The notes under the pieces: generated by a model | The model's database searches: none | Seen by the model: only the letters and a program-made list of their open reading frames with translations | Told to the model about the DNA's origin: nothing | From: a virus | DNA: 64,000 nt | Strand: one strand, 5' to 3' | IMG/VR virus record: IMGVR_UViG_3300031965_000018 | Location: 1 to 64,000 of that record | Program-made: the position numbers and the translations under genes | In this document: positions 8,421-41,160 of the stretch, one piece after another | Layout: each line of letters begins with the position of its first letter | How positions within the stretch are numbered: the first letter of the stretch is position 1

Positions 8421-8508
8421 TAGCGAGGCTCACAATGGCATCTAACAGCCATAGGAAGAAGCAGAAGAACGCTAACCACATCGCCGACATAAGGACCCAC
8501 TTGATCAT
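8413..8508 (-). CDS. possible 31-aa hydrophobic peptide between terminase and portal
   Basis: MIKWVLMSAMWLAFFCFFLWLLDAIVSLAND. ATG overlaps the TerL stop (ATGA) and the 3' end overlaps the portal start. Too short for the ORF track. Confidence 0.3.
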   Translation of the reverse strand: MIKWVLMSAMWLAFFCFFLWLLDAIVSLAND

Positions 8509-10458: not shown

Positions 10459-10525
10459 AGATCGCGTCGGGCGTGACTATACGCGCGGCCCGAGGCGAAA
10501 GTAAAGATGGAAACGGTGCTTCCGA

Positions 10526-10924
10526 GGGTAAGCCCGAGTAAGGTGAGGTAAGGTGGAATTTCCCGAGCCTTTCTTATATACCTTACCTACCTTACCTACC
10601 TTACTCTTGTATATCTTCTAATAGGAGAGGTAGCGGGATTGGACGGTTAAGCGAAGATTAAGGGGAGACGGATTTTCCGTAATTCGGGAAGTGCGTAGGC
10701 AAAATGGGTAATTCCCGGTAAGGCGGTAAGGCGCTCAAATTTCCTAACGATTTTCACCACCCGCCTTACCCAAACTTTCACCTTACCTACCTTACCTACC
10801 TTACCCTTCTTTCTAAACATTTCCGACCTTACCTACCTTACCGACCTTACCCTCGCCGCGAAACATTTCGCCCGCGACCACCTTACCTACCTTACCTACC
10901 TTACCCTTCTTTCTGAACATTTCC
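10526..10924. repeat. iteron field built on GGTAAGG/CCTTACC (9-bp unit CCTTACCTA)
   Basis: Arrays at 10581-10604, 10781-10807, 10827-10852 and 10881-10907. Inverted copies at 10538-10555 and 10717-10733. A 46-bp direct repeat at 10779-10824 and 10879-10924 is spaced exactly 100 bp apart with 1 mismatch. Confidence 0.85.
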
Positions 10925-21890: not shown

Positions 21891-22618
21891 AAGTCTATAT
21901 CCCAACCATTGGTCGAGTGGACCGACAAGTAACGCTTGCAGCGTTGCCAGAGCGATGGAAAGAACGCACATGGCTCATTCAGCAGAATAGTGAGTCTCAT
22001 ACTCACCAGTATTTTTCTTGCCCAGTAACTCGCATTGCCCAGGTTCGTCAGTGGGTGGTAGAAGAAACTGAAGGCGAGAAGCTCTTGATGCTGGACGATG
22101 ATCTTCAGTTCTTTACACGAACAATCGAAGATCCAAGGCTACGTCGGGCGACTCCCGAGGAAGTAGGGATAGCGCTGGATATGCTCGACTCGTGGTTAGA
22201 TGAACGGGCTATGGTTGGGTTTGGCCCGGTCTTTATGAACCAGCAATATCGAGTGCCGTATATTGAATGCGCGAGAGTAGCGCACTCTTTCGGATTCCAG
22301 CGGAGTGTGTTACGTTCTGAAGGCATTCGTTTCACTGACGTCGTCTTTTCCGAAGACTTCCACGTCACGCTCTCTTTACTAGAGCGAGGTTATGCGAACC
22401 GAATAAGTACACTCAATGTAGTCAAACAGGTGAAGGAAGGTGCAAGTGGTGGCATTTCGACTTACGCTACCACAGAAATCCGAGAGGAAGCTAAGCAACA
22501 ATTTGCCGCTCTCCACCCGAAGACCGTTACACTTTACCATCGAGACGTGCCCGATCAATTCGGGATGACTCTTTCGTGTCGAATTGCTTGGAAGCGAGCG
22601 TTTGGAGTTGAACGATGA
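21887..22618 (+). CDS. GT-A-like glycosyltransferase (DxD)
   Basis: MKVYIPTIGRVDR... then LLMLDDDLQFF (DxD). Any relation to base-J/TET-associated DNA glycosyltransferases needs a profile search. Confidence 0.4.
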   Translation: MKVYIPTIGRVDRQVTLAALPERWKERTWLIQQNSESHTHQYFSCPVTRIAQVRQWVVEETEGEKLLMLDDDLQFFTRTIEDPRLRRATPEEVGIALDMLDSWLDERAMVGFGPVFMNQQYRVPYIECARVAHSFGFQRSVLRSEGIRFTDVVFSEDFHVTLSLLERGYANRISTLNVVKQVKEGASGGISTYATTEIREEAKQQFAALHPKTVTLYHRDVPDQFGMTLSCRIAWKRAFGVER

Positions 22619-23298
22619 TCGACCGTGAACTGTTGGTCTTAGCTTGCGGCCGTTCCGGCACGCTCTATACGTCAAAGGTCTTTCGCGCGGCGGGTTTCGA
22701 CCTACGGCACGAGCAGATCGGCGCATTCGGTTCTTCATCCATGTATATGGTACCGAGGGTCACGGATTGCTCCATTGTCAATGCGGGGCAGAAGGTGCCA
22801 ATTCACGCCGGGGAGAATCGAGCCGACTACCGTTTTAAACACGTCTGGCACCAGACGCGCCACCCGCTTCGCGCCATCGACTCCCTCGCAAAGTCATTCA
22901 CTCGGAAGGTTCGCCTTTGGACCGGGGAGCAGATTCGCTTTGCGATGCCTGGCCGCTCCACTGAACTCCAGTGCCCTATCGAGGATAAGATCCACTGGGC
23001 GATGCGCTATTGGTTCTACAACAATGCGTTTTGTGGGGTACAAGCCGAGTGGCGCTACCAGTTGGAGAACTTTCCATGGGGTGAGATGCTGGAGCGACTC
23101 GGGTATCAGTCAGGTCACCCGCTCCCGGTTATCCCAGCGACGACCAACCGCAACCTCCGCTTCGCATTCAAGAGCGCCGAGCAGGCTGCAATGATTCGAG
23201 AGACGATCTACGACACGACGTGGGAGACACTCGAACGAATCAACCCCTATCTAACAGATACGATTCGTAGGATGGCTCGGAGGTATGGCTATGAGTAA
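22615..23298 (+). CDS. sulfotransferase-like protein (P-loop-kinase-related fold)
   Basis: LVLACGRSGTLYTSKVF resembles the 5'-PSB loop and WHQTRHPLRAIDSL resembles the 3'-PB motif. There is no Walker lysine. A kinase cannot be excluded by eye. Confidence 0.4.
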   Translation: MIDRELLVLACGRSGTLYTSKVFRAAGFDLRHEQIGAFGSSSMYMVPRVTDCSIVNAGQKVPIHAGENRADYRFKHVWHQTRHPLRAIDSLAKSFTRKVRLWTGEQIRFAMPGRSTELQCPIEDKIHWAMRYWFYNNAFCGVQAEWRYQLENFPWGEMLERLGYQSGHPLPVIPATTNRNLRFAFKSAEQAAMIRETIYDTTWETLERINPYLTDTIRRMARRYGYE

Positions 23299-23860
23299 GA
23301 TTCTCGCCATCGAGCCGCACGCCGACGATCTGTTCATCTCGGTCGGATGGACACTTGACGCAATGATTAAGGCCGGGCACGAAGTGACGACCTTGACCGT
23401 CTTTGGAGACGAGCGACGACAGAAGGAGGCGCAAGAATACGCGCGACTGCTTGGGGCCGAGCACCGAGCCTTACAACTGCCGGAGTCTGGGTCCATGGAT
23501 GGCGAAGTTGACAAGCGAGCATTACACGACGCCATAGTCGCACTCGATTCTAGCTTTAGCCAGATCTTTGACCAGGTTTGGTGTCCGCTCGGTATCTACC
23601 ACGAAGAGCATAAAGCTGTACGTCGAGCGGTAGACACCTTATTCAAGAATCCGATCTATTACCTCGACATGCCGTATGCGGTGAAAGAGAAGAACCGCAT
23701 CGAGGCAAATGAAGCCATAAGGAAGCGACACGTGATCTCTCTCATCGCACCCACGCCGCGCAAGTGGAAGGGCGCGGAGTTGATCTTCAAGTCACAATCC
23801 GCGTTCTTTCACTTCGAGCGGGATAACCTATTGCGCTGTTGGGAGATGTTGGTGCGATGA
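23291..23860 (+). CDS. PIG-L / LmbE family N-acetylglucosaminyl deacetylase
   Basis: ILAIEPHADDLFISVGWTL, GHEVTTLTVFGD and YHEEHKAV correspond to the family's AHPDD, G-x-x-V and HxDH motifs. SD GGAGG lies 7 nt before ATG 23291. Confidence 0.6.
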   Translation: MSKILAIEPHADDLFISVGWTLDAMIKAGHEVTTLTVFGDERRQKEAQEYARLLGAEHRALQLPESGSMDGEVDKRALHDAIVALDSSFSQIFDQVWCPLGIYHEEHKAVRRAVDTLFKNPIYYLDMPYAVKEKNRIEANEAIRKRHVISLIAPTPRKWKGAELIFKSQSAFFHFERDNLLRCWEMLVR

Positions 23861-24033
23861 TCAACATCTATCTCCGCTGCCCGAGTTGCGCTTACGTCTG
23901 GCACGCCACGTCGGTTGTTGAGGGCGCGTGGTGGGCGCCGAAATACCCGGAGGTTGACGCGAGATTCCAGTGCTACTGCCCGAAGTGTAGTGCCGCGCCG
24001 CCGATGGAACTTGAACGGACGGAGAATCAATGA
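23857..24033 (+). CDS. small zinc-ribbon protein
   Basis: MINIYLRCPSCAYVW...QCYCPKCSA has CxxC...CxxC. ATGA-coupled at both ends. Confidence 0.4.
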   Translation: MINIYLRCPSCAYVWHATSVVEGAWWAPKYPEVDARFQCYCPKCSAAPPMELERTENQ

Positions 24034-24614
24034 CCGTAGCAGACCGCATCGAGAACTACCATGCCGTGACCGGGTTTCCCGAGTCGTTGTTTGCCTCTGG
24101 TGACGGGCGCATCTGCGGCGTGTGGATCATGGGTAATGACTATCGCGTGAAGTCCACGTTCTATGGAGGATACCCGGCCGGTTACTTGCGGCGCGTTCGC
24201 GCTCTATTCCCTGAGAAGCAGGCCGTCTTGCACTTATTCTCGGGTCGAGTGGACACAGAAACGATGCCTGGCAAGACGGTCGATATCAATAGTGACTTGG
24301 CGCCGGACTACGTCGATGACGCGCAGACGCTCACACAAGTGCCTCTTGAAGATTTTGACCTCGTGTTAGCCGATCCTCCCTATTCGGTCGAGGACGCTGA
24401 TCATTATCAAACGACGATGGTGAAACGGAACGTCGTGATGCGCGTTCTCGGGCAACGGTTGCGACCAGGCTCTCACGTAGTTTGGCTCGACCAAGTACTC
24501 CCGATGTATCGCAAGGACAGTCTTAGCTTATACGGCGTCATTGGAATGGTGAAGTCCACGAATCATCGTTTCCGCGTCGTATCGATTTTTGAGCGAATTG
24601 GAGAGACATGTTAA
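24030..24614 (+). CDS. DNA methyltransferase (N6-adenine/N4-cytosine type, DPPY)
   Basis: Motif IV LVLADPPYS and motif I-like VLHLFSG. Compact, 194 aa. Confidence 0.6.
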   Translation: MTVADRIENYHAVTGFPESLFASGDGRICGVWIMGNDYRVKSTFYGGYPAGYLRRVRALFPEKQAVLHLFSGRVDTETMPGKTVDINSDLAPDYVDDAQTLTQVPLEDFDLVLADPPYSVEDADHYQTTMVKRNVVMRVLGQRLRPGSHVVWLDQVLPMYRKDSLSLYGVIGMVKSTNHRFRVVSIFERIGETC

Positions 24615-25582
24615 CCGAAGCACCAGAGTCACTGTTCTGGTATTGGATAAGTGAGAGACATTCCATCTACCTCCGGCGCGCGGCCGGGTTGCCGAAGCCA
24701 TGGACCGACGATCCGATCTTGCAGCAGTACAAGTTCACCAATCCGTTTCGTGAGAACGACCGAGGGACGGTGTGGTTGCGCGAGAACTTTCTGGAGCCGC
24801 ATCGTATACCCGACGAGACGTGGAGCGAGCTTGTTAAGATCGAAACGATGCAGCACGGTCGATTGAGTCACTACTCGAAATCAGAATGGCTATCCTTACT
24901 TGCCTTCAACATCGCATGGTACAGAATGTTCAACTGGTGGGGCACCGGCCGTCTCCTCGGGTGGCAGACCGATTGGGATCCGGCAGCGGTCATCGAGACA
25001 CTGACCCAAGCAAGTCTTCGCGGCGAGCAGGTTTTCACCGGCGCGCATATCGTCTACAGCCCGCCAGGACGGCCGAAGATCGACGCCATCGTGGACGTCT
25101 GCTCGGCACTCTATGATCTAACAGTTACGCAACGAGAGCTAGTCATCGACCCGCCGCACCATCGCTCGTTTGTCGAAGCGTGTCGCGCGTATCGATCCTT
25201 GGAGCGAGCCTTCTATTGGCTTCAATCCGTCTATTGCGTCGGCGGGTTCATGGCTTATGAGATGGTCACCGATATGCGGCATACGCGGCTCCTTGAGGAC
25301 GCGACGGACATCATGACGTGGGCCAATATGGGGCCGGGTGCGAAGCGTGGCTTGACGAGACTTGGACTCCCGGCGCGGAACCAAGATGAGGGGTGCGAGT
25401 CGATGCGTGGCCTCTTATCGAGGGCAAATACACAGCTTCCGGTGAATCATCCGGCAGCTGATTGGCCTACTCCCGAGATGCGCGATATCGAACACAGCCT
25501 GTGTGAATTCGATAAGTATTGCCGCGTGAAGTTCGGAGAAGGCAAGCCACGGTCAATGTACCCTGGGAGGAAGAATGACTAG
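24608..25582 (+). CDS. aGPT-Pplase-like protein (alpha-glutamyl/putrescinyl thymine pyrophosphorylase family)
   Basis: I recognise WYWISERHSIYLRRAAGLPKPWTDDPILQQYKFTNPFRENDRGTVWL as the characteristic N-terminal signature of this thymidine-hypermodification family. Needs HMM confirmation. Confidence 0.5.
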   Translation: MLTEAPESLFWYWISERHSIYLRRAAGLPKPWTDDPILQQYKFTNPFRENDRGTVWLRENFLEPHRIPDETWSELVKIETMQHGRLSHYSKSEWLSLLAFNIAWYRMFNWWGTGRLLGWQTDWDPAAVIETLTQASLRGEQVFTGAHIVYSPPGRPKIDAIVDVCSALYDLTVTQRELVIDPPHHRSFVEACRAYRSLERAFYWLQSVYCVGGFMAYEMVTDMRHTRLLEDATDIMTWANMGPGAKRGLTRLGLPARNQDEGCESMRGLLSRANTQLPVNHPAADWPTPEMRDIEHSLCEFDKYCRVKFGEGKPRSMYPGRKND

Positions 25583-26651
25583 TCGTATTGTCGCCGTTGA
25601 TGTGAGGGATATTCTCCCTAATCCCTATCGTAATCTTGATAAGTATGTTTTAGACGCCACGAAGATCGATGCGCTTAAGCAGAGTTATGAGACTAGTGGC
25701 TTCTGGGATGGGTCAATTCAAGCACGGCCAAGTCCGACGATTCCAGATAAGTATGAGATTGCCTTTGGACATCACCGTATTGAGGCCGCTCGGATCAAAG
25801 GTATCACTCCAGTTGGGCTCGTCGTGTCTCAACGCTCGAATGCCGATATGCTCCGCATGATGGCCCACGAGAACAGCACCGACTTCCGCAACGACATGCG
25901 CCCGACGATTGAAACCATCCGCGCCGTCATCGAGGCATATGGCCGTGGGGAGATTGAGTTGGAGGTAATTACGGGACACGGAGCTAACCAGCAACAATAT
26001 AGTTTACCGAGCGGTAAACATTACTCCCTCGCAACCGTCGCCCGCTTCCTCAATTGGGTAAAAAATAGTGACAACCAGGCCACCACCGCATGCCGCGTGG
26101 CGTTTGATGCCTATCGGGAGGAAGCGGCGTCGGCGGAGGCGATTGAGCAGTTGGGTGGGAAGGAAGCCACTGAGACCGCGATCCTCGCCATTAACACGGC
26201 CATTCGCGCGGCGCGAGTGTCGGCACATGAGAAGGGATTGACTCCCTCACAAACCCGACAAGCTGAAAAAGCGGCAGCAGAAGCAACAGCGAACGCTATA
26301 CATAACTATGGAGCTGCCCGAGGTCGCGGTGAAGCCGTCTCGGCGGGTAAGGCGGCGGTAGATGCTATCGTTGGAAAGAAGAAACCGAAGACGGTGCCGG
26401 TTGAATTCTACATCGCTACCGTCAATAGTAAGAGTCTCGCCTATAACGCCTATGGAGAATTCTTGAAGCAGTGCGACGTGTTGTTACCCGTGTTAGAGCA
26501 CGTCCGACCGGAGGCCAAAGAAGCCCTAGCAGCGGCACTAGAGAGAATGCTTGAGCGCACGACTCAACCCGTATCTGCCCTCATCCGTGCCCTGCGTGCA
26601 GAAGACGTAGAGCAATTAACAAGGTTGCTTTCCAAGGAGACTTCGTCATGA
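25575..26651 (+). CDS. ParB/sulfiredoxin-like N-terminal domain protein
   Basis: ILPNPYRNL and YEIAFGHHRIEAARIKG form a GxxR-type ParB box. The long helical, Ala-rich C-terminus overlaps both neighbouring genes. Confidence 0.6.
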   Translation: MTSRIVAVDVRDILPNPYRNLDKYVLDATKIDALKQSYETSGFWDGSIQARPSPTIPDKYEIAFGHHRIEAARIKGITPVGLVVSQRSNADMLRMMAHENSTDFRNDMRPTIETIRAVIEAYGRGEIELEVITGHGANQQQYSLPSGKHYSLATVARFLNWVKNSDNQATTACRVAFDAYREEAASAEAIEQLGGKEATETAILAINTAIRAARVSAHEKGLTPSQTRQAEKAAAEATANAIHNYGAARGRGEAVSAGKAAVDAIVGKKKPKTVPVEFYIATVNSKSLAYNAYGEFLKQCDVLLPVLEHVRPEAKEALAAALERMLERTTQPVSALIRALRAEDVEQLTRLLSKETSS

Positions 26652-27283
26652 GAGAATCTATGCGATCGATTGGTGATATTGCTCAGAGAACCAGAGAGAC
26701 ACGAGATATCATCGATTACCCCGACGGTACTATTGCGTGGGGGGAGCTTACTCGTGTAGGTACATACTACTTCCGTACTACGAAAGGTCGAGACAGACTT
26801 TTGCTCCCGCTCGATGACCATAACCCGTGGCGCGACCGTGGAGATCAAGGCCATCGGGTTTCCAATATAGACTTAGCTGTCTTGATTGTAAACTCTCACC
26901 GAAAGTCAGACCACCTGAGTTACGAGGAAGATTTGCGAGTCGTTAAAAAGGTATTACATGACGCTTATAAATCGGTGATTGAAGTCGTTACTAACCTAGG
27001 AAATACCGTCATTGCCGTAGATGCTGAAGGTATGGCGTTAGGAGTCGAGGGCAATACTAACCCACAAGCAGGATTTGACCTAGCAGATTCTCCTGCGGGA
27101 CGGGCGCTTAAAATGCAAAAGATTGCCTCACTCGGAGGATCAGCGAAACGTGTGAATCGCGACATCGAAAGTCTGCGTGCACCAGAACCAAAGCTAGACG
27201 AACTCTATGGGGTAAATCAACTCGTATCGGGGGCAGCAGCTCAAGTATTGTACAACGAGAACAGATATGAGGATGACTTGTGA
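26648..27283 (+). CDS. hypothetical protein within modification operon
   Basis: 211-aa track ORF, ATGA/GTGA-coupled. No motif recognised. Confidence 0.5.
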   Translation: MRESMRSIGDIAQRTRETRDIIDYPDGTIAWGELTRVGTYYFRTTKGRDRLLLPLDDHNPWRDRGDQGHRVSNIDLAVLIVNSHRKSDHLSYEEDLRVVKKVLHDAYKSVIEVVTNLGNTVIAVDAEGMALGVEGNTNPQAGFDLADSPAGRALKMQKIASLGGSAKRVNRDIESLRAPEPKLDELYGVNQLVSGAAAQVLYNENRYEDDL

Positions 27284-28293
27284 TCACCCTCCGCGTCCGC
27301 AACGTCCACGAGGCACTCCCCGTCGCCATCGAGTTACTCCATCGCATCGGCATCCGGCGCGAGTCTCGCAACGGGCCAGTTCTCCAGTCGCCCGAGCCGG
27401 TCGCCACGGTATATGAGCATCCGACTGAGCGCGTCATCTTCTGGCCCGAGCGGGATGCGAATCCATTCTTGCATTTGTACGAGAGCCTGTGGATGCTCGC
27501 CGGGCATAATGACCTCGCACCATTGCTCCGGTATACAAAACGGTTCGCAGAGTTTTCCGACGACGGCGAGACGCTGCACGGAGCGTATGGGTATCGGTGG
27601 CGGAACCATTTTCGTATCCAGGCAGTGAAGAGCGAGTACCATAAGACGGACCAACTCTCCGTCATAGCCGAGCAGCTCAAAGCGAATCCCGAGGATCGCC
27701 GGTGCGTTCTGGGCATGTGGGACCCGGAAGCCGATCTTGGCCGCCAGGGCAAGGATCTGCCCTGTAACGACACCGCCACGTTCCAGATCGGCCCAGACGG
27801 GCGTTTGAACATGGTCGTCTTCTGCCGCTCCAACGACATCGTCTGGGGTGCCTACGGCGCGAATGCCGTCCACTTCAGCTATCTCCTCGAATACATGGCC
27901 GCGTGGATCGGCGTCCCGGTCGGCACGTATACGCAGGTCAGCGTCAACTGGCACGCGTATCTAAAGACGCTAGAGCCGGTGCGGAAGTTGAATCTGGCGT
28001 ATGGTGACCCGTATGGAAGTGGGCGCGTCCTCTCGCACTCGTTACCGTCAGCTGCTTTCGCCGGAGGTATCGAGGTCATCGACCGTGACATCTCCGAGAT
28101 TTTGCGGCAAGCTGATAGCGGTGAATGGAATGAGTGGACGGTGAAACTCAGCTGGTCCGCAAGCGTGATCTACATTCTTCATATGCACCATAACTGGAAA
28201 ACCAGAGGGCGTGCCTGGACTCTCAAATACGCCATACCCGTCGATGATTGGTCACTAGCCGCTATCGAGTGGCTGGAACGGAGGAAGGCGTGA
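27280..28293 (+). CDS. thymidylate synthase (ThyA) family enzyme, candidate deoxypyrimidylate hydroxymethylase
   Basis: ESLWMLAGHNDL, HGAYGYRWRNHF, DQLSVIAEQLKANPEDRRCVLGMWDP, catalytic DLPCN, FCRSNDIVWGAYGAN and NWHAY. There is about 70 aa of extra C-terminal sequence. Confidence 0.8.
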   Translation: MITLRVRNVHEALPVAIELLHRIGIRRESRNGPVLQSPEPVATVYEHPTERVIFWPERDANPFLHLYESLWMLAGHNDLAPLLRYTKRFAEFSDDGETLHGAYGYRWRNHFRIQAVKSEYHKTDQLSVIAEQLKANPEDRRCVLGMWDPEADLGRQGKDLPCNDTATFQIGPDGRLNMVVFCRSNDIVWGAYGANAVHFSYLLEYMAAWIGVPVGTYTQVSVNWHAYLKTLEPVRKLNLAYGDPYGSGRVLSHSLPSAAFAGGIEVIDRDISEILRQADSGEWNEWTVKLSWSASVIYILHMHHNWKTRGRAWTLKYAIPVDDWSLAAIEWLERRKA

Positions 28294-28541
28294 TGGCCAA
28301 GAAACGCGATCCATTCAATGGCACCATCCACGATTGGGCCGCTCGCGCGGCGGAACGGATTGCCGATGACCGAGAGGCATCGGTATCTCGCATCGCCGCG
28401 ATCATCGAGACATACGCCCAGCCCTGGCTCAAGCTACTCCGCGAGTCGCGTCGAGGACACGAGTTCCAGTGCGAGGGCGACGACAACTGTGATTGCGAAG
28501 CCAAAGAGTGGAACGAGAAAGTTGATAAGGCGCTGCGATGA
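28293..28541 (+). CDS. hypothetical protein
   Basis: MAKKRDPFNGTIHDWAARAAE... is the internal ATG of the track ORF, sharing 1 nt with the upstream TGA. Confidence 0.45.
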   Translation: MAKKRDPFNGTIHDWAARAAERIADDREASVSRIAAIIETYAQPWLKLLRESRRGHEFQCEGDDNCDCEAKEWNEKVDKALR

Positions 28542-28621
28542 CTAAGCAAGATGTCTACCGATGGTTATTCGTGTTAGGTGTGCTCTTACTCGTCTGGCTT
28601 ATGCGAGACACGCGCCGATGA
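28538..28621 (+). CDS. possible 27-aa membrane peptide
   Basis: MTKQDVYRWLFVLGVLLLVWLMRDTRR. ATGA-coupled on both sides. Confidence 0.3.
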   Translation: MTKQDVYRWLFVLGVLLLVWLMRDTRR

Positions 28622-28845
28622 CTATCGAAGAACTGGCTGAGAAACTGACGCCCATCACACTCGAAGCGTTAGAGTGTGATCCGGGCACCGACGTCAACGC
28701 CGCGGCGATTGTTCTTTGCGCGCTCATGGGCGCCATCGAACAGAATCGGGAGGCTCTATTCCCGTTGGCATTCATTTGTGGCCAAGTCACTCGGCACTTC
28801 GAGTCCCATGACCCGAACGTGAAAGGCTATAAGGAACCCAATTGA
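28618..28845 (+). CDS. hypothetical protein
   Basis: MTIEELAEKLTPITLEALE... is an internal start of track ORF 28561..28845. Confidence 0.4.
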   Translation: MTIEELAEKLTPITLEALECDPGTDVNAAAIVLCALMGAIEQNREALFPLAFICGQVTRHFESHDPNVKGYKEPN

Positions 28846-29005
28846 GAATCAATCGCGGGCAGCTTCGACGTCAAAGACAGTGGTTGTCCGGGCCAGGCAA
28901 GATGTCACCTTCACGGGCGCGATTTCGACGTAGACACTTATTAGACGCACTGTCTATCCTGATCGCGCGGTTACGCCGTATGGGCAACCTAACGGATCGA
29001 AGACC

Positions 29006-29662
29006 ATGAGAATCTCTTCCAAACGCCAATTCTTCGCCCTTTGGCGCGAGGGAGTCCTGGGGAACCGGACGTTGCTCTGGGATACGGTCGAGGAAGCCCT
29101 TGCCTACCGGCCTTCGGTCGCGCGTATCGGTTTCCGCGAACTGGGGAAGGCGGGCGGTGGGGCGTGGGAACTGGCGGCCCGTAGCGAGGCCCGTAGCGTC
29201 TCGGATCGGTGGCGCGCGGAAGGCCGGACGTTTATCCTGGACGGCTCGGTGCCGAACGATAAGAGCACGATGCAAGGCGAAGTCTGTCGGACGACGCGCG
29301 GGTTGGAAGGCTATCTGTGTTTTCGCAACTTCTTCCGAGTGCAATTCCCAGATCGCGGAGTCTGCGAGTTCAGTGGAGTCTATACGAACTTGAAACCTGG
29401 CGAGGGAGTAACGGTCCAACCGCTCACAGAACCGGGACTCCCGCCTATGCGCCAGACACTAGCACGAGGGCTCCATCGTCACTTCAGCTACGTCATGACG
29501 CGCTATCTCTTGGAGCGATACATGGACCCGTCTAGCCGCGATGACCTCGATATGCTTCTGGAGCAATACCCGGATGCGACCGTCGAGTTCACGTGCTTCA
29601 GCGTCAACGTCGGATTGTTTCCGAGGCGCAATACCATATTTTGGGAAGTGAGATCGTATTGA
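29006..29662 (+). CDS. hypothetical protein
   Basis: 218-aa track ORF after a 160-nt noncoding gap. No motif recognised. Confidence 0.5.
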   Translation: MRISSKRQFFALWREGVLGNRTLLWDTVEEALAYRPSVARIGFRELGKAGGGAWELAARSEARSVSDRWRAEGRTFILDGSVPNDKSTMQGEVCRTTRGLEGYLCFRNFFRVQFPDRGVCEFSGVYTNLKPGEGVTVQPLTEPGLPPMRQTLARGLHRHFSYVMTRYLLERYMDPSSRDDLDMLLEQYPDATVEFTCFSVNVGLFPRRNTIFWEVRSY

Positions 29663-29877
29663 TGACCGGAACAATCATTCGTATCCTCCACGTCAAGGGT
29701 TTCGGATTTCTCCTGGATGAAGAGGGCGCGGAACGATTCATCCACGTGGCCGACCTACTCGATGAGACCGCATGGGCGACGTTGCGCGGCGGGATTCGCG
29801 TCGAGTTCAAACCTATTCATCGACCCAACGGCAGCGGCAACCAGCTGGGTGTTGCGGATTTGAGAGTAACAGAATAA
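29662..29877 (+). CDS. cold-shock domain (CspA-like) protein
   Basis: GTIIRILHVKGFGFLLDEEGAERFIHV carries the RNP1/RNP2-like KGFGF and FxH motifs. Confidence 0.7.
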   Translation: MTGTIIRILHVKGFGFLLDEEGAERFIHVADLLDETAWATLRGGIRVEFKPIHRPNGSGNQLGVADLRVTE

Positions 29878-30677
29878 TGAGCGTCAACCTCGCCCAATCA
29901 CTCCAGCTACTCCGGCCCTTGACGGTTTTCGATGTCGAGACGACGGGCGTCTCGTGGGACAACGACCGCATCATACAGATCAGCGTCACGAAGCATTCTC
30001 CCTCGAAAGATCCGATCCGTTGGACGTCACTCGTCAACCCCAGCATCCCGGTGCCCGTGGAGATACAGCGCATACACGGCATCACGGACGAGGCACTTGC
30101 CGGTGCGCCTACGTTCAAGAGTCTCGCGGCGGATCTGGCGCGCACCGCATTTACGGGCGTGGACTTCGCGGGCCATGGCGTGACGTTCGACTTGAAGATG
30201 TTCCGAGCCGAGTGTCGGCGCGCGGGCGTCGAGTGGGATTGGGAGAAGACGGACGCAAAGGTCATCGATACGTTACGCATCCGCCAGATCACGATGCCCA
30301 ACGACCTATCGACCGTCTATGAGGACATCACCGGCCAGAAGCTCACCAACGCGCACGACGCCGGTGCCGATGTCATAGCGACGGAGATTGTTCTAGCCGG
30401 ACAGTTATCCCGCCACACGAAGCTCCCGCGCACGGTCACGGCCTTGGCGGACTTTTGCTGGCCGAAGAAAACGGACGCGGTAGACGCGGCCGGGAAGTTC
30501 GTATGGCGGAACGGTAAGGCGTGTCTTGCCTTCGGAAAGTTCAGCGGCCGACCACTGGATGACCCGAGCGTGAAGGATTATCTCGCGTGGATGCTGAGGG
30601 GCGACTTCCCGCCCGAGACGAAAGATATTGTGAAACGTGCCCTGTCGGGTGAGATGCCGGTGAAGGAGACTCAATGA
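29877..30677 (+). CDS. DnaQ-like DEDDh 3'-5' exonuclease
   Basis: Exo I VFDVETTG, Exo II HGVTFDLKMF and Exo III NAHDAGADV, plus an extra C-terminal domain of about 90 aa. Confidence 0.75.
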   Translation: MSVNLAQSLQLLRPLTVFDVETTGVSWDNDRIIQISVTKHSPSKDPIRWTSLVNPSIPVPVEIQRIHGITDEALAGAPTFKSLAADLARTAFTGVDFAGHGVTFDLKMFRAECRRAGVEWDWEKTDAKVIDTLRIRQITMPNDLSTVYEDITGQKLTNAHDAGADVIATEIVLAGQLSRHTKLPRTVTALADFCWPKKTDAVDAAGKFVWRNGKACLAFGKFSGRPLDDPSVKDYLAWMLRGDFPPETKDIVKRALSGEMPVKETQ

Positions 30678-35946: not shown

Positions 35947-36558
35947 ATGGCAACGCGTAAGCGACCGTTCAAGTTGGCCCCGCCGCTGAAACCTAAACCG
36001 CCATCTCAACTGCAAGAGGGTCGTCTTGTCTGGCGAAATGGATATGCGTACGTATGTAAACCCGGTTATATACGGCACGGGCGAAAACCTTCTGGTTACG
36101 TTAAACGAGCAGATCTCGTACTTGAAGAGAAACTCGGGCGTAAACTTGAAGCCAATGAAATTGCCCATCACAAAAATCATGTACGTTCCGACGATCATCC
36201 GGACAATTTAGAAGCAAAAGACTTTCGTCTGCATACGAGCGACCACTATTTGGAAACTGTCGTATACCGCTCTGATTCAAAGCTGATGGCAGAGATTGCC
36301 TTGCAACTTGGGCGTGCAGGATACGTTCGACGCTATGAAGTTCGTATGCCGAGAGACCGTGGCGGGAAGGCGTTACGCATCGCGTTTGCGCACCCCACTA
36401 AGCAAATCGCTCTATTGACAAACTCGAATACGAGGAAAGCGAAAATCCTGCGCGAAATGGGGTGGACGGTGTACGATCTAGAGACGGGCGATTTTCTTCC
36501 GAAAATCGGCCGTCCTTACGGCTCTAGGCAAGGCGATTCCGAGGTCGATAAAGGGTAA
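35947..36558 (+). mobile_element. HNH homing endonuclease gene
   Basis: IAHHKNHVRSDDHPDNLE is an HNH motif. The segment is visibly more AT-rich than its neighbours and is free-standing between gene blocks. Confidence 0.7.
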
Positions 36559-36656
36559 GTTTGGGCCGTTTCTCAGGCGTATTACAAATAAAGACGGCCG
36601 TAAGTCCTTTAAACGGAGTGAGATGCAAAATATATCGACGAATGGTGATTTAGTGC

Positions 36657-36685
36657 TTTACTTGGTTGGTGCCCTCGCGTAATAT
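36657..36685 (+). promoter_or_regulatory. sigma70-like promoter for the hammerhead operon
   Basis: TTTACT-N17-TAATAT. It is followed by about 250 nt of purine-rich leader with no ORF. Confidence 0.45.
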
Positions 36686-36933
36686 CTCGTTGTTGGTTGT
36701 CGTGGAAACCGACCGGGACGGTGACGAGCCGAGATTACCGAGGCGAGGGAAACTCGCGTAGGGTCGAAGCTAGAAAACTCCGAAACCGAAGATAGGCCGA
36801 TAGGCGCCAGGGATGAAAGTTCAGTCCAAGCCCGGACGTAGGCGCGAATCGAGGATCGACGGGAACGACGGACGGTAGCTGAGGTGTTACGCGGAAGAGG
36901 CCGAGGCTACTCGGAAGTCGGGAAAGTCGAATC

Positions 36934-37017
36934 GAGGAATACGAAACGATATGCGAGCGGTTCACTAGAACGGTTCGCGTATCGTCGCCCGACGAAACGG
37001 GCCTGATGAGGTTCCTC
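36934..37017 (+). ncRNA. type II hammerhead ribozyme motif, copy 1
   Basis: GAGGAAU-AC-GAAA, a 12-bp stem III hairpin, UC, GCCCG-ACGAAA-CGGGC, then CUGAUGAG-GUUCCUC. Predicted cleavage after C36986. Confidence 0.8.
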
Positions 37018-37019
37018 AA

Positions 37020-37364
37020 ATGGCTAACGCACGAACAATGCGACTTCAAGCGGCAGAACGGAAGCAACAGGACGCCGCCAAGAATCTTTCTCACCGCTAC
37101 TCCGTCGTCATTGTTCGGTTGAACGGGATGGTGATCTCGGGCGAAGTCGATGGCTTCTGGAAAGACGCGGTAGCGCGGGCGGAGGAAATGCTGAACGATA
37201 CGTTCTACTTCGACGCCCATGGTTACAAGACGGAAGGCGACCCGCGTGCGAATCCTTTCCGTGTGATCGTGGCGATGAGCGACGGTAGGACGACTGAAAC
37301 CGCGTCGTGCTATGAAGTCGGTTGGGATAACGGCCGGAGGATGTTAATGTCCGGTCGTCGGTAG
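37020..37364 (+). CDS. hypothetical protein (cassette 1)
   Basis: 114-aa track ORF. ATG lies 3 nt after ribozyme copy 1, and the stop TAG is embedded in copy 2. Confidence 0.55.
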   Translation: MANARTMRLQAAERKQQDAAKNLSHRYSVVIVRLNGMVISGEVDGFWKDAVARAEEMLNDTFYFDAHGYKTEGDPRANPFRVIVAMSDGRTTETASCYEVGWDNGRRMLMSGRR

Positions 37365-37433
37365 GCATACGAAACTCCGATGGGCCCTGACGGGATCGGA
37401 GTCGCCGGACTTAACCGGCCTGATGAGGTGCCT
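37363..37433 (+). ncRNA. type II hammerhead ribozyme motif, copy 2
   Basis: AGGCAU-AC-GAAA, CUCCGAU...AUCGGAG, UC, GCCGG-ACUUAA-CCGGC, then CUGAUGAG-GUGCCU. Cleavage after C37403. Confidence 0.85.
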
Positions 37434-37434
37434 T

Positions 37435-37632
37435 ATGTGGAAATGGAAGCTGGTAGTAAAGAAGACCGGACGAACGTGGGGTGTTTTTGACGAAGTGTCT
37501 GGTGACCTCGTTGAGGGCGGTTTCTTTCGACGCAGTGCGGCCGAGCAGTCTTTGCGCGATTGGGAAAAACAACTTTCGCAGGAAACAGCGGAAGACGCCG
37601 AGCGCGCGGCCGGTTGGGACCCCAACCCGTAG
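37435..37632 (+). CDS. hypothetical protein (cassette 2)
   Basis: MWKWKLVVKKTGRTWGVFDE... I take ATG 37435, not the track's ATG 37423, which is the AUG inside CUGAUGAG. Confidence 0.5.
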   Translation: MWKWKLVVKKTGRTWGVFDEVSGDLVEGGFFRRSAAEQSLRDWEKQLSQETAEDAERAAGWDPNP

Positions 37633-37692
37633 GCATACGAAATGGCGGAACAGTCCGCCATCGCCGGACTTAACCGGCCTGATGAGGTGCCT
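37631..37692 (+). ncRNA. type II hammerhead ribozyme motif, copy 3
   Basis: AGGCAU-AC-GAAA, UGGCGGA-ACAG-UCCGCCA, UC, GCCGG-ACUUAA-CCGGC, then CUGAUGAG-GUGCCU. Cleavage after C37662. Confidence 0.85.
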
Positions 37693-37693
37693 T

Positions 37694-37900
37694 ATGACTT
37701 TGATTAACACGACAACTCGCAACGCTTTCTGGCGCATCTCGCGCAAAGGTTCTACCGTCTACGTCATGTGGGGTCGAATCGGAACGCGCGGGCAGACCCG
37801 GCAGATCCGGTTCGCCAACGAGACTTCCGCCCGGACGTTCGTAGAGACTCGGATCGACTCCAAGATCGAGGATCGAGACTACGTGCCCGTGAGCCGGTAG
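37694..37900 (+). CDS. WGR domain protein (cassette 3)
   Basis: MTLINTTTRNAFWRISRKGSTVYVMWGRIGTRGQTRQIRFANETSARTFVETRIDSKIEDRDYVPV contains the WGRIG-x-GQ signature. Confidence 0.6.
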   Translation: MTLINTTTRNAFWRISRKGSTVYVMWGRIGTRGQTRQIRFANETSARTFVETRIDSKIEDRDYVPVSR

Positions 37901-37960
37901 GCATACGAAACTCCGCGATAGCGCGGAGTCGCCCGAATGGACGGGCCTGATGAGGTGCCT
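37899..37960 (+). ncRNA. type II hammerhead ribozyme motif, copy 4
   Basis: AGGCAU-AC-GAAA, CUCCGCG-AUAG-CGCGGAG, UC, GCCCG-AAUGGA-CGGGC, then CUGAUGAG-GUGCCU. Cleavage after C37930. Confidence 0.85.
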
Positions 37961-37961
37961 T

Positions 37962-38171
37962 GTGAATTTGAACTCGATCTCCTCCGATCTCCATCGTTAC
38001 AAGCAGGCGACGTTCCGAGTCGCATCTAGCGTCTACGCCGTAACCGGATCGGTGCGACTCGGTTATTCGCTTTGGCTCCTCTCGGAAGGTCGCTTCGGTC
38101 CAAAGCGTGATTTGATCGCAACATTTTCAACCCTCCACGCACTGGCCGGTTACGTCGAGGATAATTCATAG
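37962..38171 (+). CDS. hypothetical protein (cassette 4)
   Basis: GTG 37962 lies 1 nt after the ribozyme (VNLNSISSDLHRYKQ...). The stop TAG is fused to copy 5. Confidence 0.45.
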   Translation: MNLNSISSDLHRYKQATFRVASSVYAVTGSVRLGYSLWLLSEGRFGPKRDLIATFSTLHALAGYVEDNS

Positions 38172-38229
38172 GAACTAGAAACGGGCCGCTCTGGCCCGTC
38201 GCCGGAATAAACCGGCCTGATGAGGTTCC
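38171..38229 (+). ncRNA. type II hammerhead ribozyme motif, copy 5 (variant subclass)
   Basis: GGAAC-UA-GAAA, CGGGCC-GCUCU-GGCCCG, UC, GCCGG-AAUAAA-CCGGC, then CUGAUGAG-GUUCC. Position 11.1 is not the usual C. Cleavage after C38200. Confidence 0.65.
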
Positions 38230-38232
38230 AGC

Positions 38233-38625
38233 TTGACCCTCTTGAATGAGAGACTCCCAATGAACAAGCAGACGATTCGTTTCAACAACAACGGTGCTTC
38301 CCTCGACGTGCTGGCGCGGAACGGCAAGACCGGGATCAGCGTTTTCCTCCGGGTCAAGTCGCCCGGCCAGCGGGCGGTCATCGGGTGCCGTAACGTCTTC
38401 CTGCCGGCCAATGAGAAAACGGCGCAGGAGACGTTCGACCGTCTCGTGGCGGATGCCGAGTCGAAGGGCTGGACCCGAAAGACGGCCGGCACCGGCGCCA
38501 CCGCGTCGCAGTTCTCGGAAGTGCCCCTGCCGACGGCGCTGCCCGCGTCGGTGCCGCTCGCGCCGAAGGTGGTGAAGGCAAAGGTGGCCGAGGCTCCGAA
38601 GGCGAAGCTGGTGAGCCGGAAGTAA
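38233..38625 (+). CDS. hypothetical protein (cassette 5), Lys/Ala/Pro-rich tail
   Basis: 130-aa track ORF starting at TTG 38233, 7 nt after GAGG. The alternative ATG 38260 has its own GAGAG. Confidence 0.5.
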   Translation: MTLLNERLPMNKQTIRFNNNGASLDVLARNGKTGISVFLRVKSPGQRAVIGCRNVFLPANEKTAQETFDRLVADAESKGWTRKTAGTGATASQFSEVPLPTALPASVPLAPKVVKAKVAEAPKAKLVSRK

Positions 38626-38681
38626 GAGCGGACGGTAGAGCGGACGTGCACGAGTGGCGGTAGCGCACGAGTGGCGTGGGC

Positions 38682-38717
38682 GGTTCCGAGCGCAGGCAGA
38701 TGATCGCGCTCGGAACC
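38682..38717 (+). other. 12-bp perfect stem-loop between cassette 5 and ribozyme 6
   Basis: ggttccgagcgc-N12-gcgctcggaacc. No U-tract follows. Confidence 0.4.
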
Positions 38718-38724
38718 TAACGCC

Positions 38725-38786
38725 AGGCATACGAAATGGCGGACTGTTCCGCCATCGCCGGAATAGACCGGCCTGATGAGGTGCCT
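38725..38786 (+). ncRNA. type II hammerhead ribozyme motif, copy 6
   Basis: AGGCAU-AC-GAAA, UGGCGGA-CUGU-UCCGCCA, UC, GCCGG-AAUAGA-CCGGC, then CUGAUGAG-GUGCCU. Cleavage after C38756. Confidence 0.85.
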
Positions 38787-38789
38787 AGG

Positions 38790-39107
38790 ATGAAAGTCAA
38801 GATTGGATTCGACACCGTCGTGCTCGGAACCGAAGTGTGCATCGAGTTCACCCGCGTCACCGAGGGACACCGCGAAAACTACGGCGCAGATGCGGATGGG
38901 AACCGTGGGATGATGGTTGGGATGATCGACTCCGACGACGCGGAAGACATCGTTGTGACGATGCCGTCAGGAACGGAGCGCCCGTTTGAGACGCTACCGG
39001 ACGCGGCGCAGCGGGCGGTGAGACGTGAAGTGGACCGCTACCTGGAGGAGAATGAGCCGGAAGCGGAAGACGAGCCGGAGCGGGACTGGGATGAGGAGAC
39101 GTCATGA
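38790..39107 (+). CDS. hypothetical acidic protein (cassette 6)
   Basis: MKVKIGFDTVVLGTEVCIEF... starts 3 nt after the ribozyme, at an internal ATG of the track ORF. Confidence 0.5.
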   Translation: MKVKIGFDTVVLGTEVCIEFTRVTEGHRENYGADADGNRGMMVGMIDSDDAEDIVVTMPSGTERPFETLPDAAQRAVRREVDRYLEENEPEAEDEPERDWDEETS

Positions 39108-39277
39108 AACTGACCGTTGAGATTCGACGCGGGCCGGGTAAGAAACCGATGCGGGTAGAGTCGCCGCTGGACCAGGGAGTCACCCTCGCCCAGCTACGCG
39201 GGTTGTTGATGGCGGAGATTGCCCTCAATGAGCTACCCTCGAAACTCCGGTTTCACTTTCACGTGGTGGAGGACTGA
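39104..39277 (+). CDS. possible 57-aa protein
   Basis: MKLTVEIRRGPGKKPMRVESPLDQGVTLAQLRGLL... ATGA-coupled. Below the track cutoff. Confidence 0.35.
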   Translation: MKLTVEIRRGPGKKPMRVESPLDQGVTLAQLRGLLMAEIALNELPSKLRFHFHVVED

Positions 39278-39361
39278 ATGGATTCAATCTGGACATCGTT
39301 TATACTTGGAGGTATCTGGGCACTACTCTTGATGATCTACATTCGACTCGGAAAGCGCTGA
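39278..39361 (+). CDS. possible 27-aa membrane peptide
   Basis: MDSIWTSFILGGIWALLLMIYIRLGKR. The stop TGA is fused to ribozyme copy 7. Confidence 0.3.
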   Translation: MDSIWTSFILGGIWALLLMIYIRLGKR

Positions 39362-39419
39362 GGAACTAGAAACGGGCCGCTGGGCCCGTCGCCAGAATGA
39401 ACTGGCCTGAGGAGGTTCC
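39362..39419 (+). ncRNA. type II hammerhead ribozyme motif, copy 7 (variant subclass)
   Basis: GGAAC-UA-GAAA, CGGGCC-GCUG-GGCCCG, UC, GCCAG-AAUGAA-CUGGC, then CUGAGGAG-GUUCC, where N7 is G. Cleavage after C39390. Confidence 0.65.
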
Positions 39420-39420
39420 C

Positions 39421-39636
39421 GTGAAGTTTTTCGTAACAGCTATTCAACGCAGTCGCTCGACGCGCCGACGATGCGGCAAGGCGCACTCGTTCATCGCAGA
39501 GGCCCGAGGTAACGACTTGAGCGCTATCGAGGGCATCATTGAGCAGCGCTGGGATGACGAGCATCCCGGCTCGCATACCTTTCTGGAGATCATCGATCTG
39601 CGAGAGGCGAGAGAAGCGAGTGAGGTGACGTCATGA
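39421..39636 (+). CDS. hypothetical protein (cassette 7)
   Basis: GTG 39421 lies 1 nt after the ribozyme (VKFFVTAIQRSRSTRRRCGKAH...). Confidence 0.45.
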   Translation: MKFFVTAIQRSRSTRRRCGKAHSFIAEARGNDLSAIEGIIEQRWDDEHPGSHTFLEIIDLREAREASEVTS

Positions 39637-40103
39637 TGCGCGTCAAACTATTCGAGGTTCGGGACCGCGCGACGTTCATCGCGGTCTTGGCGGTGAAGCT
39701 CACCGCAGATGTACAACTCACGACAGACGATCTGGAGTTGGTCGGAGACGAGCGAATCGGGTCTCGCAACCCAGAGCACTTCCTACTCCGTCGCGCAGGC
39801 TATGCGAGTGCAGCCATTGCACCGTCATGGACCGGCGAGCCTTACGTGCTCGTGGCGAAGCTGGAACGCGCGCACTACGATCCCTTCAGCTGGGACTCGA
39901 TGACGATGGTTGGGGCCCACCGACATATCCGCGACAATTGGGACAAGCTATCGAGTGGTGATGTCATTGACGTCGAGTTTCTGCGCGGCGAGACGGACCA
40001 ACCGAAGGCATCCGAGTGGGTCACGGTATGGAACCGCTACACTACAATGCCTGACCCTCGACTCCCTGACCCGAACGACGTCAGAGAAACGGATGGAGAC
40101 TGA
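39633..40103 (+). CDS. hypothetical protein
   Basis: 156-aa track ORF, ATGA-coupled to its neighbours. Confidence 0.5.
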   Translation: MMRVKLFEVRDRATFIAVLAVKLTADVQLTTDDLELVGDERIGSRNPEHFLLRRAGYASAAIAPSWTGEPYVLVAKLERAHYDPFSWDSMTMVGAHRHIRDNWDKLSSGDVIDVEFLRGETDQPKASEWVTVWNRYTTMPDPRLPDPNDVRETDGD

Positions 40104-40993
40104 TGTTCATCACCCCAATGCTCGCGGCATCGATGCCGAAGACGCCCGTCACGATTCACCCGGGCGTCTTCTTGGTCGAAGAAAAGTATGATGGCCACCG
40201 ACTCGTCACTCACGTCGATAGCGACCACAGGGTTGCGGCGTGGAGTCGCTACGGGCTAGAGCGCGTTCTGCCCGTTCACGTCGTCAACGCCATTGCTCGG
40301 CTCTCGCCGGGCATCTACGATGGCGAACTGATCGTGCCGGGCAAACGATCCTACGGCGTCACTGAACTGGTCAATGGCTCCGAACTCGTCTATACCGTAT
40401 TCGACGTTCTGGAACTGCTCGGAACCTCGACCATCGCGAGCACTTACATGCAACGTCGGGCCTACCTAGAGGAGATGTCGAGGCATCGGCTCTTCAACGC
40501 CGACGGGATCCAACTGGCCGAGGTCACACCCGTTGACTCGGCAGACGACGTGCGGCGCTATCTGGATGCCGTCTGGAAGCGGGATGGCGAGGGACTAATC
40601 CTCAAGCGACTCGGGGCGCGCTACGTGCCCGGCAAGCGCCCGAAGGACGCCTGGATCAAGATAAAGGCATTGCGCTCGGCGGTCCTGACCGTCATCGGGT
40701 TCATTCCCTCGAAAGGACAAATCAATAACCGTGGGCCCTATGCGACGGTGGCGCTGCGTGATGACGAGGGCCATGAGACGACCGTCAAGACGCTCAACGA
40801 TGCGGAGTGTCGGAGGTTTGAGGAGGAAGCACCAAGGCTCCCAGAGATTGATGAGTTCTCACTCGGTCGGGTTTGCCCCGATCACCCCGCCATCGGCCGG
40901 AAGCTACGTATCGAGTATCAAGAAAGAACACCGGATGGGAATTATCGCCACCCTAGGTGGGATCGCTGGCACACCACAGATGATGAAGAGTAA
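40103..40993 (+). CDS. ATP-dependent DNA ligase
   Basis: Motif I EEKYDGHR, motif III YDGELIV, motif IV EGLILKRL and motif V AWIKIKA. Confidence 0.85.
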   Translation: MFITPMLAASMPKTPVTIHPGVFLVEEKYDGHRLVTHVDSDHRVAAWSRYGLERVLPVHVVNAIARLSPGIYDGELIVPGKRSYGVTELVNGSELVYTVFDVLELLGTSTIASTYMQRRAYLEEMSRHRLFNADGIQLAEVTPVDSADDVRRYLDAVWKRDGEGLILKRLGARYVPGKRPKDAWIKIKALRSAVLTVIGFIPSKGQINNRGPYATVALRDDEGHETTVKTLNDAECRRFEEEAPRLPEIDEFSLGRVCPDHPAIGRKLRIEYQERTPDGNYRHPRWDRWHTTDDEE

Positions 40994-41118: not shown

Positions 41119-41160
41119 AACCCGGCCTGGGCCTACCCGCTCAGCGCCGGGTTTCTTTGT
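41119..41160 (+). terminator. intrinsic terminator of the + strand arm
   Basis: aacccggc-N19-gccgggtt followed by tctttgt. Confidence 0.55.

Follow-up and report, generated by a model that had tools for sequence, protein, structure and literature searches.

What do seven small ribozyme motifs do in the gaps of one short stretch of a phage operon? This question is raised by the viral record IMGVR_UViG_3300031965_000018 of the IMG/VR database, of which we analysed positions 1 to 64,000 (hereafter, the window). Seven type II hammerhead motifs, here called HH1 to HH7, lie within 2.5 kb of this window, each in a non-coding gap and in the same orientation as the genes. Our analysis confirmed this observation, and our reading is that the seven elements are probably functional ribozymes, which would cut the RNA of a long rightward DNA-metabolism operon towards its distal end, in a tailed phage. 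The motif, the covariation of its stems, the conservation of its core, its placement and the synteny of the locus are all observed directly.

An array of seven type II hammerhead motifs

Both strands of the window were searched with a descriptor that required the CUGANGA sequence, U16.1-H17, closed stems I and III, the latter opened by GAA-A15.1, and an open stem II. Exactly the seven motifs of the array were matched, while in 200 second-order Markov simulations there were on average 0.02 matches per window and never more than 1. The array had been proposed in an initial annotation of this DNA, and the independent descriptor found all the + strand copies again at the same coordinates, with the same seven C17 positions as predicted cleavage sites (Table 1). 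The stem sequences quoted in that annotation were also correct.

All seven copies have the same order: the 3' strand of stem II, GAAA, the stem III hairpin, UC, the stem I hairpin, CUGAUGA and the 5' strand of stem II. Stem II opens to the flanks and the other two stems end in loops, stem I being a 5-bp hairpin with a 6-nt loop. The core, C3-U4-G5-A6-N7-G8-A9 plus G12-A13-A14, is complete in 7/7 copies, and so is the cleavage site, U-C followed by G1.1. HH7 reads CUGAGGA where the other six copies read CUGAUGA. Three details of the initial annotation had to be changed. The shared ...AUAC-GAAA order that it described holds for HH1, HH2, HH3, HH4 and HH6, whereas HH5 and HH7 read ...CUA-GAAA; stem III, given as 6-12 bp, measures 7-13 bp; and the ribozymes do not occur one per intercistronic gap, since the g6/g7, g7/g8, g9/g10 and g10/ligase junctions, all of them direct overlaps, have none.

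Table 1. Coordinates of the array, of the genes around it and of its edges in the window. Related loci are numbered with the prefix L.
Feature	Position	Strand	Predicted cleavage	Remarks
HNH endonuclease gene	35947-36558	+		Upstream edge of the array; same arrangement in L004
Leader	36559-36933	+		375 nt, free of open reading frames (ORFs); ended by HH1
HH1	36934-37017	+	after C36986	Type II hammerhead
g1	37020-37364	+		ORF; ATG 2 nt past HH1; stop TAG 37362-37364
HH2	37363-37433	+	after C37403	Type II hammerhead
g2	37435-37632	+		ORF; ATG 37435; stop TAG 37630-37632
HH3	37631-37692	+	after C37662	Type II hammerhead
g3	37694-37900	+		Pfam WGR, 2.7e-12; ATG 37694; stop TAG 37898-37900
HH4	37899-37960	+	after C37930	Type II hammerhead
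g4	37962-38171	+		ORF; GTG 37962; stop TAG 38169-38171
HH5	38171-38229	+	after C38200	Type II hammerhead, ...CUA-GAAA subtype
g5	38233 (TTG) or 38260 (ATG) to 38625	+		ORF
HH6	38725-38786	+	after C38756	Type II hammerhead
g6	38790-39107	+		ORF; ATG 38790
g7	39104-39277	+		ORF
g8	39278-39361	+		27 aa, hydrophobic (MDSIWTSFILGGIWALLLMIYIRLGKR); stop TGA 39359-39361
HH7	39362-39419	+	after C39390	Type II hammerhead, ...CUA-GAAA subtype, N7 = G (CUGAGGAGG)
g9	39421-39636	+		ORF; GTG 39421
ATP-dependent DNA ligase gene	40103-40993	+		Downstream edge; syntenic anchor in related phages
Terminator-like hairpin	41135-41152			After the ligase gene

The 36-nt 3' halves of the window copies are 69-100% identical to each other, HH2 and HH3 being the same over those 36 nt. 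HH1 has a GAGGAAU/GUUCCUC stem II with a bulged A, a stem III of 13 bp and a GCCCG/CGGGC stem I with an ACGAAA loop. HH5 and HH7 are near duplicates: their stem I differs by a compensatory change from G-C to A-U, and the other differences are a stem III loop shorter by one base (GCUCU versus GCUG), one base of loop I and the change of N7 from U to G. HH3 (37642-37661) and HH6 (38736-38755) have the same stem III with the loop reverse-complemented (ACAG versus CUGU), which looks as if the hairpin had been inverted at the DNA level.

A conserved and covarying subfamily

A fixed pattern derived from the motif retrieved 15 IMG/VR loci, 8 single matches in bacterial genomes and 71 metagenome loci. 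Altogether, the subfamily comprises at least 129 distinct copies, 122 from these 94 loci and the seven of the window. A covariance model, R1, was built on 15 copies free of gaps, of which the window contributed three. With the filters off, R1 scored the window copies at 44 to 81 bits (HH1 44-54, HH2 67.2, HH3 78.3, HH4 77.2, HH5 69.2, HH6 80.6 and HH7 61.8 bits), and the next match in the window had 11.8 bits (E = 0.5). Note that HH1, HH2, HH5 and HH7 were not part of the R1 seed, while HH3 was one of its members.

Applied to the window and 23 loci, R1 gave 71 matches, 68 of them distinct. C3, U4, G5, A6, G8, A9, A13, A15.1 and U16.1 were unchanged in 68/68 sequences, and G12, A14 and C17 were each kept in 67/68. 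Counted over the 14 positions of the core and the cleavage site, 11 showed no change and three showed a single one. Position N7, the one position of the hammerhead core that tolerates any base, was U in 35 sequences, C in 19, A in 7 and G in 7. The initial annotation had called the core of the window copies invariant apart from N7; in the family, 67 or 68 of the 68 sequences agree at each of the other core positions. A core that is nearly invariant, with N7 left free, indicates selection for catalysis, and not for a generic hairpin repeat.

In support of the structure, 17 of the 19 base pairs showed compensatory changes in the 68-sequence alignment. Standard pairs filled 94.2% of the pair cells, compared to 29-46% when the partners were slid by 1-3 columns, and the covariation score was 0.591, compared to 0.145 after shuffling, with 0/500 shuffles reaching the observed values; note that these figures come from an alignment fitted to R1, which favours the structure. 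In a MAFFT alignment of the window copies, which does not depend on the model, 98.1% of the cells were paired and 4 of the 15 alignable pairs had compensatory changes. These changes affect all three stems, as the initial annotation had proposed. Its reading of the elements as type II hammerheads holds on every sequence-level criterion, namely topology, core, family conservation and covariation.

The subfamily has its own structural traits. Stem I has a fixed length of 5 bp (GCC(G/C)G) and carries a conserved hexaloop, A-A-U-N-R-A, replaced in HH1, HH2 and HH3 by ACGAAA or ACUUAA. Stem II is 6-7 bp long and open, with one or two bulged bases beside the core. When the copies are folded in isolation, the minimum free energy structure is the three-way junction.

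The ribozymes join stop codon to start codon

The elements are closely fitted to the translation signals of their neighbours. Genes g1, g2 and g3 stop at the UAG of U-AGGCAU, within stem II, and the stop codons of g4 and g8 overlap the first base of the next ribozyme or lie directly against it (HH5 and HH7, respectively). At the other side, the start codons lie 1-3 nt past stem II (Table 1). In 7/7 copies the core nucleotides G8-A9-G10.1-G10.2 read GAGG, with a start codon 5-8 nt downstream. In HH7, the G at N7 turns GAUGAGG into GAGGAGG, which contains GGAGG and is a stronger Shine-Dalgarno (SD) sequence. The other genes of the phage have GGAGG, GAGGU or AGGAG as SD, with spacers of 4-9 nt; for example, GAGGUGA is located 5 nt before the ATG of g10.

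This arrangement extends to the related loci. Leaving aside one locus of another type (L014, see below), 44/47 of the GAGG-type copies had, 4-9 nt downstream (mode 6), the start codon of an ORF of 30 codons or more, compared to 15.6% of random positions. Since the search pattern itself required GAGG, the copies found only as neighbours of pattern matches were analysed apart: GAGG was present in 20/32 of them, and the 4-9 nt spacing in 22/32. Four copies have an A at position 10.2. Three of these (in L004, L025 and L034) have a G at N7 (CUGAGGAGA) and a nearby start codon, with GAGGAG restored 3 nt upstream; the fourth, in L008, has a U at N7 and no nearby start codon. These positions and spacings lead us to conclude that the 3' part of the ribozyme appears to double as the ribosome-binding site in this subfamily.

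L014 (IMGVR_UViG_3300027784_000510, 7659-10871) carries nine type II hammerheads, most of another subtype. Positions 10.1-10.2 are usually not GG in this locus (GAGG in 2/9 copies) and the start codons are mostly further downstream. The three L014 copies that were examined each carry a separate AGGAG SD. Several of the L014 copies are followed by CAUCAGCACUGACGAG, in which CAUCAG is the exact complement of the core sequence CUGAUG; this may be an anti-ribozyme or an element of refolding after cleavage.

Genome context of the array

The window belongs to a tailed phage, with genes for a portal protein, a large terminase, a VapE-like primase, PolA (family A polymerase), a SNF2 helicase and tail proteins. 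Its terminase shares only 39.6% identity with that of a group of Rhizobium phages, the nearest among the cultured phages. Among cultured phages, megablast found no match for the window, and blastn with HH3 found none either. The array is located near the end of a long + strand block of DNA-metabolism genes.

Apart from the WGR domain of g3, searches of Pfam, PHROGs and NCBIfam gave no function for g1 to g9. Homologues of g3, g5 and g9 adjoin hammerheads in other phage contigs. The g8 product would be a single hydrophobic helix; its ORF fits tightly between g7 and HH7, and the stop and start codons overlap there. No RNA-repair or RNA-ligase genes were found among the scanned ORFs.

Two longer non-coding segments belong to the locus, the leader before HH1 and a 99-nt spacer (38626-38724) that separates the g5 stop from HH6; no conserved elements were found in either of them in the related loci. 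The 5' part of the leader is AT-richer, and in it a weak sigma-70-like sequence, TTTACT-17 nt-TAATAT, can be read by eye at 36657-36685 (8/12 matches, below the threshold of the promoter scan described below). The leader sequence 36802-36820 (AGGCGCCAGGGATGAAAGT) is similar to 38779-38797, which covers the 3' end of HH6 and the start of g6. The leader may hold the promoter or a decayed cassette. The spacer contains two tandem 17-nt repeats (38640-38673) and a perfect 12-bp inverted repeat, GGTTCCGAGCGC/GCGCTCGGAACC (38682-38717). No U-tract follows this inverted repeat, which could serve to stabilise a 3' end, as an RNase III site or as an operator.

Antisense ORFs of 161-234 codons cross the array on the - strand (36735-37220, 38026-38730 and 38175-38870). 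The high G+C content probably accounts for these as artefacts, since the homologues and the Pfam domain belong to the + strand ORFs. Finally, a cluster of DNA hypermodification genes elsewhere in the window (21887-30677, +) encodes a TET-associated glycosyltransferase (21887-22618), a PIG-L-type deacetylase (23291-23860), a 5-hmdU DNA kinase (24608-25582), a ParB_N-domain protein (25575-26651) and a thymidylate-synthase-like protein (27280-28293); an RNase_T-type exonuclease is encoded at 29772-30677. The DNA of the phage probably contains hypermodified thymidine.

Related loci carry other genes at the same place

Arrays on a single strand are also present in the relatives, with 11 copies in L008, nine in L001, L014, L048 and L068, and eight in L004 and L073. 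The nearest nucleotide identity to the window is about 66-71%, over the ligase and gp34-like genes, and none of the relatives is the same phage as the window. The gene order Pam3-gp34-like gene, HNH gene, hammerhead array, ligase gene recurs in L004, whose ligase has 60% protein identity, and parts of it recur in L001, L002, L008/L009 and L011. The genes inside the array mostly differ between relatives, and the families that are common to them (g5, WGR and g9) appear in another order. Bacterial genomes gave only the 8 single pattern matches, which lie in unrelated taxa and therefore give no clue to the host.

How the array may process the operon RNA

The reading that we consider likely is that the seven elements process the transcript of the operon in the phage-infected cell. 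From hammerhead chemistry and from what governs bacterial mRNA decay we infer cleavage in vivo, protection of the new ends and unmasking of the ribosome-binding site. Each element, of about 60-84 nt, would fold into its three-way junction as the polymerase completes it, and would cleave itself after C17. The operon RNA would thereby be divided into one-gene messages for g1, g2, g3, g4 and g5, a g6-g7-g8 block, and a last fragment running from g9 through g10 and the ligase gene.

The upstream product of each cut would end in the stem III hairpin (7-13 bp, G+C-rich) plus UC with a 2',3'-cyclic phosphate, and therefore both 3' exonucleases and polyadenylation should be hindered. The downstream product would start with a 5'-OH placed directly on the stem I hairpin, and so should escape the decay that depends on a 5'-monophosphate. 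Since stem II (6-7 bp) alone would hold both products together, with a duplex energy of -7 to -9 kcal/mol before the bimolecular penalty, they should separate and free the SD. The released GAGG, often as GAGGUG or GGAGG, would then serve the start codon 5-8 nt downstream. Under this model the ribozyme would be a compact intercistronic cassette made of a stop codon, a 3' protective hairpin, a cut, a 5' protective hairpin and a ribosome-binding site, which would uncouple the expression and the stability of neighbouring small genes without any host RNase.

A further step can be proposed. If the SD inside the core were accessible only after the cut and the melting of stem II, cleavage would license translation. 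Since one conserved repeat of about 60 nt holds the stop codon, the cut site, both protective hairpins and the ribosome-binding site, it would also act as a universal joint, in which recombination could exchange small genes between phages and restore a working expression unit every time; the whole would resemble an integron-like cassette system based on ribozymes. We put this forward tentatively, as something short of an even chance.

Several observations weigh against processing by functional ribozymes. In the scan of the 64-kb window with Rfam at the gathering thresholds, no family reached its score, and nothing was found at this level in seven related loci which together hold 43 further copies. 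The initial annotation had itself named the absence of covariance-model hits above the gathering threshold as a result that would refute its reading, and this absence is what the scan gave. In the permissive mode, Hammerhead_II (RF02276, gathering 37 bits) was the top family for HH4 (27.8 bits, E = 0.0098), HH5 (25.4) and HH7 (20.1), and did not report HH1, HH2, HH3 or HH6. We read these scores as a limit of the RF02276 model, and not as evidence against the motif, because in the printed alignments the consensus of that model has only 2 bp in stem II, its stem I is longer, and its 3' tail forms a pseudoknot with loop I.

The structure itself provides other adverse points. Published type II examples depend on a contact of stem I with stem II to cleave fast at low Mg2+ (PMC3088659), and we found no pseudoknot or tertiary partner for loop I, with neither complementarity nor mutual information to either flank; the strong conservation of the AAUNRA loop points to some other contact. 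HH1, HH2, HH3, HH4 and HH6 have a G10.1-C11.1 pair with a bulged A beside it, whereas HH5 and HH7 either lack C11.1, with an A facing G10.1, or have one more A ahead of G12. Note that the CUA-GAAA form is present in 33/66 family members, all with intact stems. With 20-nt flanks, the hammerhead was the minimum free energy fold in 5/7 copies and the z-scores ranged from -0.4 to -4.4, so the thermodynamics alone gives moderate support only; the hammerhead was the favoured fold in HH1 and HH3, with z = -4.4 each. The unpaired probabilities of the SD before and after cleavage, obtained from the partition function, were inconsistent between copies. Finally, the promoter scan found no site above threshold, including in or beside the hammerheads, with the caveat that the promoter type of the host may differ.

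Alternative explanations

The repeats could matter mainly as DNA. In this explanation, the elements of about 60 nt are homology patches for the swap, duplication or loss of small-gene cassettes in a hyperplastic region, and catalysis is secondary. The identical or nearly identical 3' halves, the near duplication of HH5 and HH7, the different genes found at the same locus in the relatives and the shuffled order of g5, WGR and g9 all support it, and the PeSL cassettes of T4-type phages are a precedent (PMC2839356). Moreover, since the stop codon and the SD are built in, an exchange inside the repeat always regenerates an intact unit. Homology alone, however, cannot explain the invariance of the catalytic positions with N7 free, nor the covarying stems, and no breakpoints can be mapped at this divergence. 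We regard this explanation as possible but rather doubtful as the main one, and it is compatible with RNA processing. A different possibility is that cleavage is conditional, gated by the terminating ribosome in stem II, or by Mg2+ or the physiological state, so that the array times or tunes its genes. A ribosome that terminates must melt stem II, as the stop codons are part of the 3' strand of this stem; the ribozymes have no obvious tertiary stabiliser and could be slow; and regulated cleavage has been suggested for phage variants (PMC3088659). We consider this unlikely, however, given that there is no aptamer-like insert and that the stem III inserts are simple hairpins.

Two other explanations are much less probable. 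The halves of the hammerheads left on a cistron might pair, and its ends be joined by reversal of the cleavage or by the host RtcB, to give circular or re-ligated messages. The end chemistry suits ligation and, because HH2, HH3 and HH4 have the same stem II, the two ends of the g2 fragment, and likewise those of the g3 fragment, match each other perfectly. However, 4 of the 6 window fragments have mismatches and, over 117 neighbouring pairs, stem II forms 6.1 pairs within a ribozyme, compared to 3.9 between fragment ends and 2.9 at random; spliced or circular products were sought, and not found, by Perreault et al. (PMC3088659). This makes circular messages very improbable. Least credible of all is that the elements are not ribozymes, the motif being a terminator, an RNase site or a protein-binding hairpin repeat that matches by chance, or a set of dead relics. 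The lack of an Rfam match at gathering and the two copies with non-canonical 10.1/11.1 would fit this, but stem III is not followed by a U-tract, 68 diverged copies keep an essentially invariant core with N7 free, 17/19 pairs covary, and seven matches were observed where 0.02 are expected by chance. These statistics effectively exclude chance motifs or dead relics, and self-cleavage of the operon RNA is the explanation that we retain.

Relation to known systems

In phage T7, cuts by RNase III between the early genes give discrete mRNAs that are stabilised by 3' hairpins. T7 thus uses a protein enzyme of the host, whereas here the RNA is predicted to cut itself, leaving 5'-OH and 2',3'-cyclic-phosphate ends. 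RiboJ insulators and hammerhead switches that mask a ribosome-binding site place a self-cleaving ribozyme immediately before that site, remove the upstream context, leave a 5' hairpin and can free a sequestered SD on cleavage. These devices are synthetic and have the SD in an extended stem, whereas here G8-A9-G10.1-G10.2 of a natural core appears to be the SD.

The closest natural relatives are the published type II hammerheads (RF02276; PMC3088659), which have the same core, the same A15.1-U16.1/C17 site, the same circular permutation, and bacterial and phage settings. In their consensus, stem II can be reduced to 1-2 bp and loop I forms a pseudoknot with the 3' tail (PMC3088659), whereas the subfamily described here has a 6-7 bp stem II with a bulge of 1-2 nt, a fixed 5-bp stem I, the AAUNRA loop and no detectable pseudoknot. 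Its sequence does not occur in the searched supplementary files of Perreault 2011 (PMC3088659).

In prophages, several hammerheads often flank single genes or short blocks, and the flanked genes vary (PMC3088659). Triple arrangements have been described in Agrobacterium tumefaciens (ardA), Clostridium scindens and Azorhizobium caulinodans; they cut polycistronic transcripts of about 2 kb in vitro and in E. coli, and processing into operon-length or gene-length mRNAs was proposed (PMC3088659). The present array resembles these clusters in having several ribozymes oriented with the genes and in the bracketing of varying single genes or short blocks of phage origin. Since clustered prophage hammerheads flanking single genes were published in 2011 (PMC3088659), the initial annotation overstated the case when it called the array striking. 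The differences are that the arrangements tested have three ribozymes, and here there are seven, with up to 11 in relatives, all of one subfamily; and that the units are here tiled from stop codon to start codon, with a core that doubles as SD. A link to the SD was found neither in PMC3088659 (0 occurrences of 'Shine-Dalgarno') nor in the phage-hammerhead literature searched by keyword.

Other systems share single aspects of this design. Three type II hammerheads of Desulfovibrio vulgaris (loc1-3) lie near phage-like genes and cleave in vivo and in vitro (PMC8782182); two of them are about 300 nt apart, no long array was described and a role in translation was not proposed (PMC8782182). The intergenic hammerheads of fungal RNA viruses, for which a role in translation initiation was proposed (bioRxiv 10.1101/2024.05.16.594327), also fill the whole intergenic untranslated region and cut a few nucleotides before the next start codon, but they are type I ribozymes of eukaryotic RNA viruses, with no SD mechanism. 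The PeSL cassettes are likewise repeated intergenic elements that flank variable small genes at a conserved locus, with possible shuffling; they consist of an early promoter plus a stem-loop and are not ribozymes (PMC2839356), whereas no promoter-like site is present at the hammerheads here.

In summary, clustered phage hammerheads were already known; what is new is the size of the array, a structural subtype that Rfam misses, and the fused design of stop codon, ribozyme, SD and start codon. The Rfam type II model misses this whole subfamily. According to a 2019 review, the purpose of bacterial and phage hammerheads is still to be defined (PMC6765202). The array and its relatives turn this question into a concrete, testable design, in which the two capped stems would become the terminal hairpins of both products. 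The units would be natural, compact and host-independent insulators for operon design, and their interest lies in the direct experimental handle that they offer on the function of phage hammerheads.

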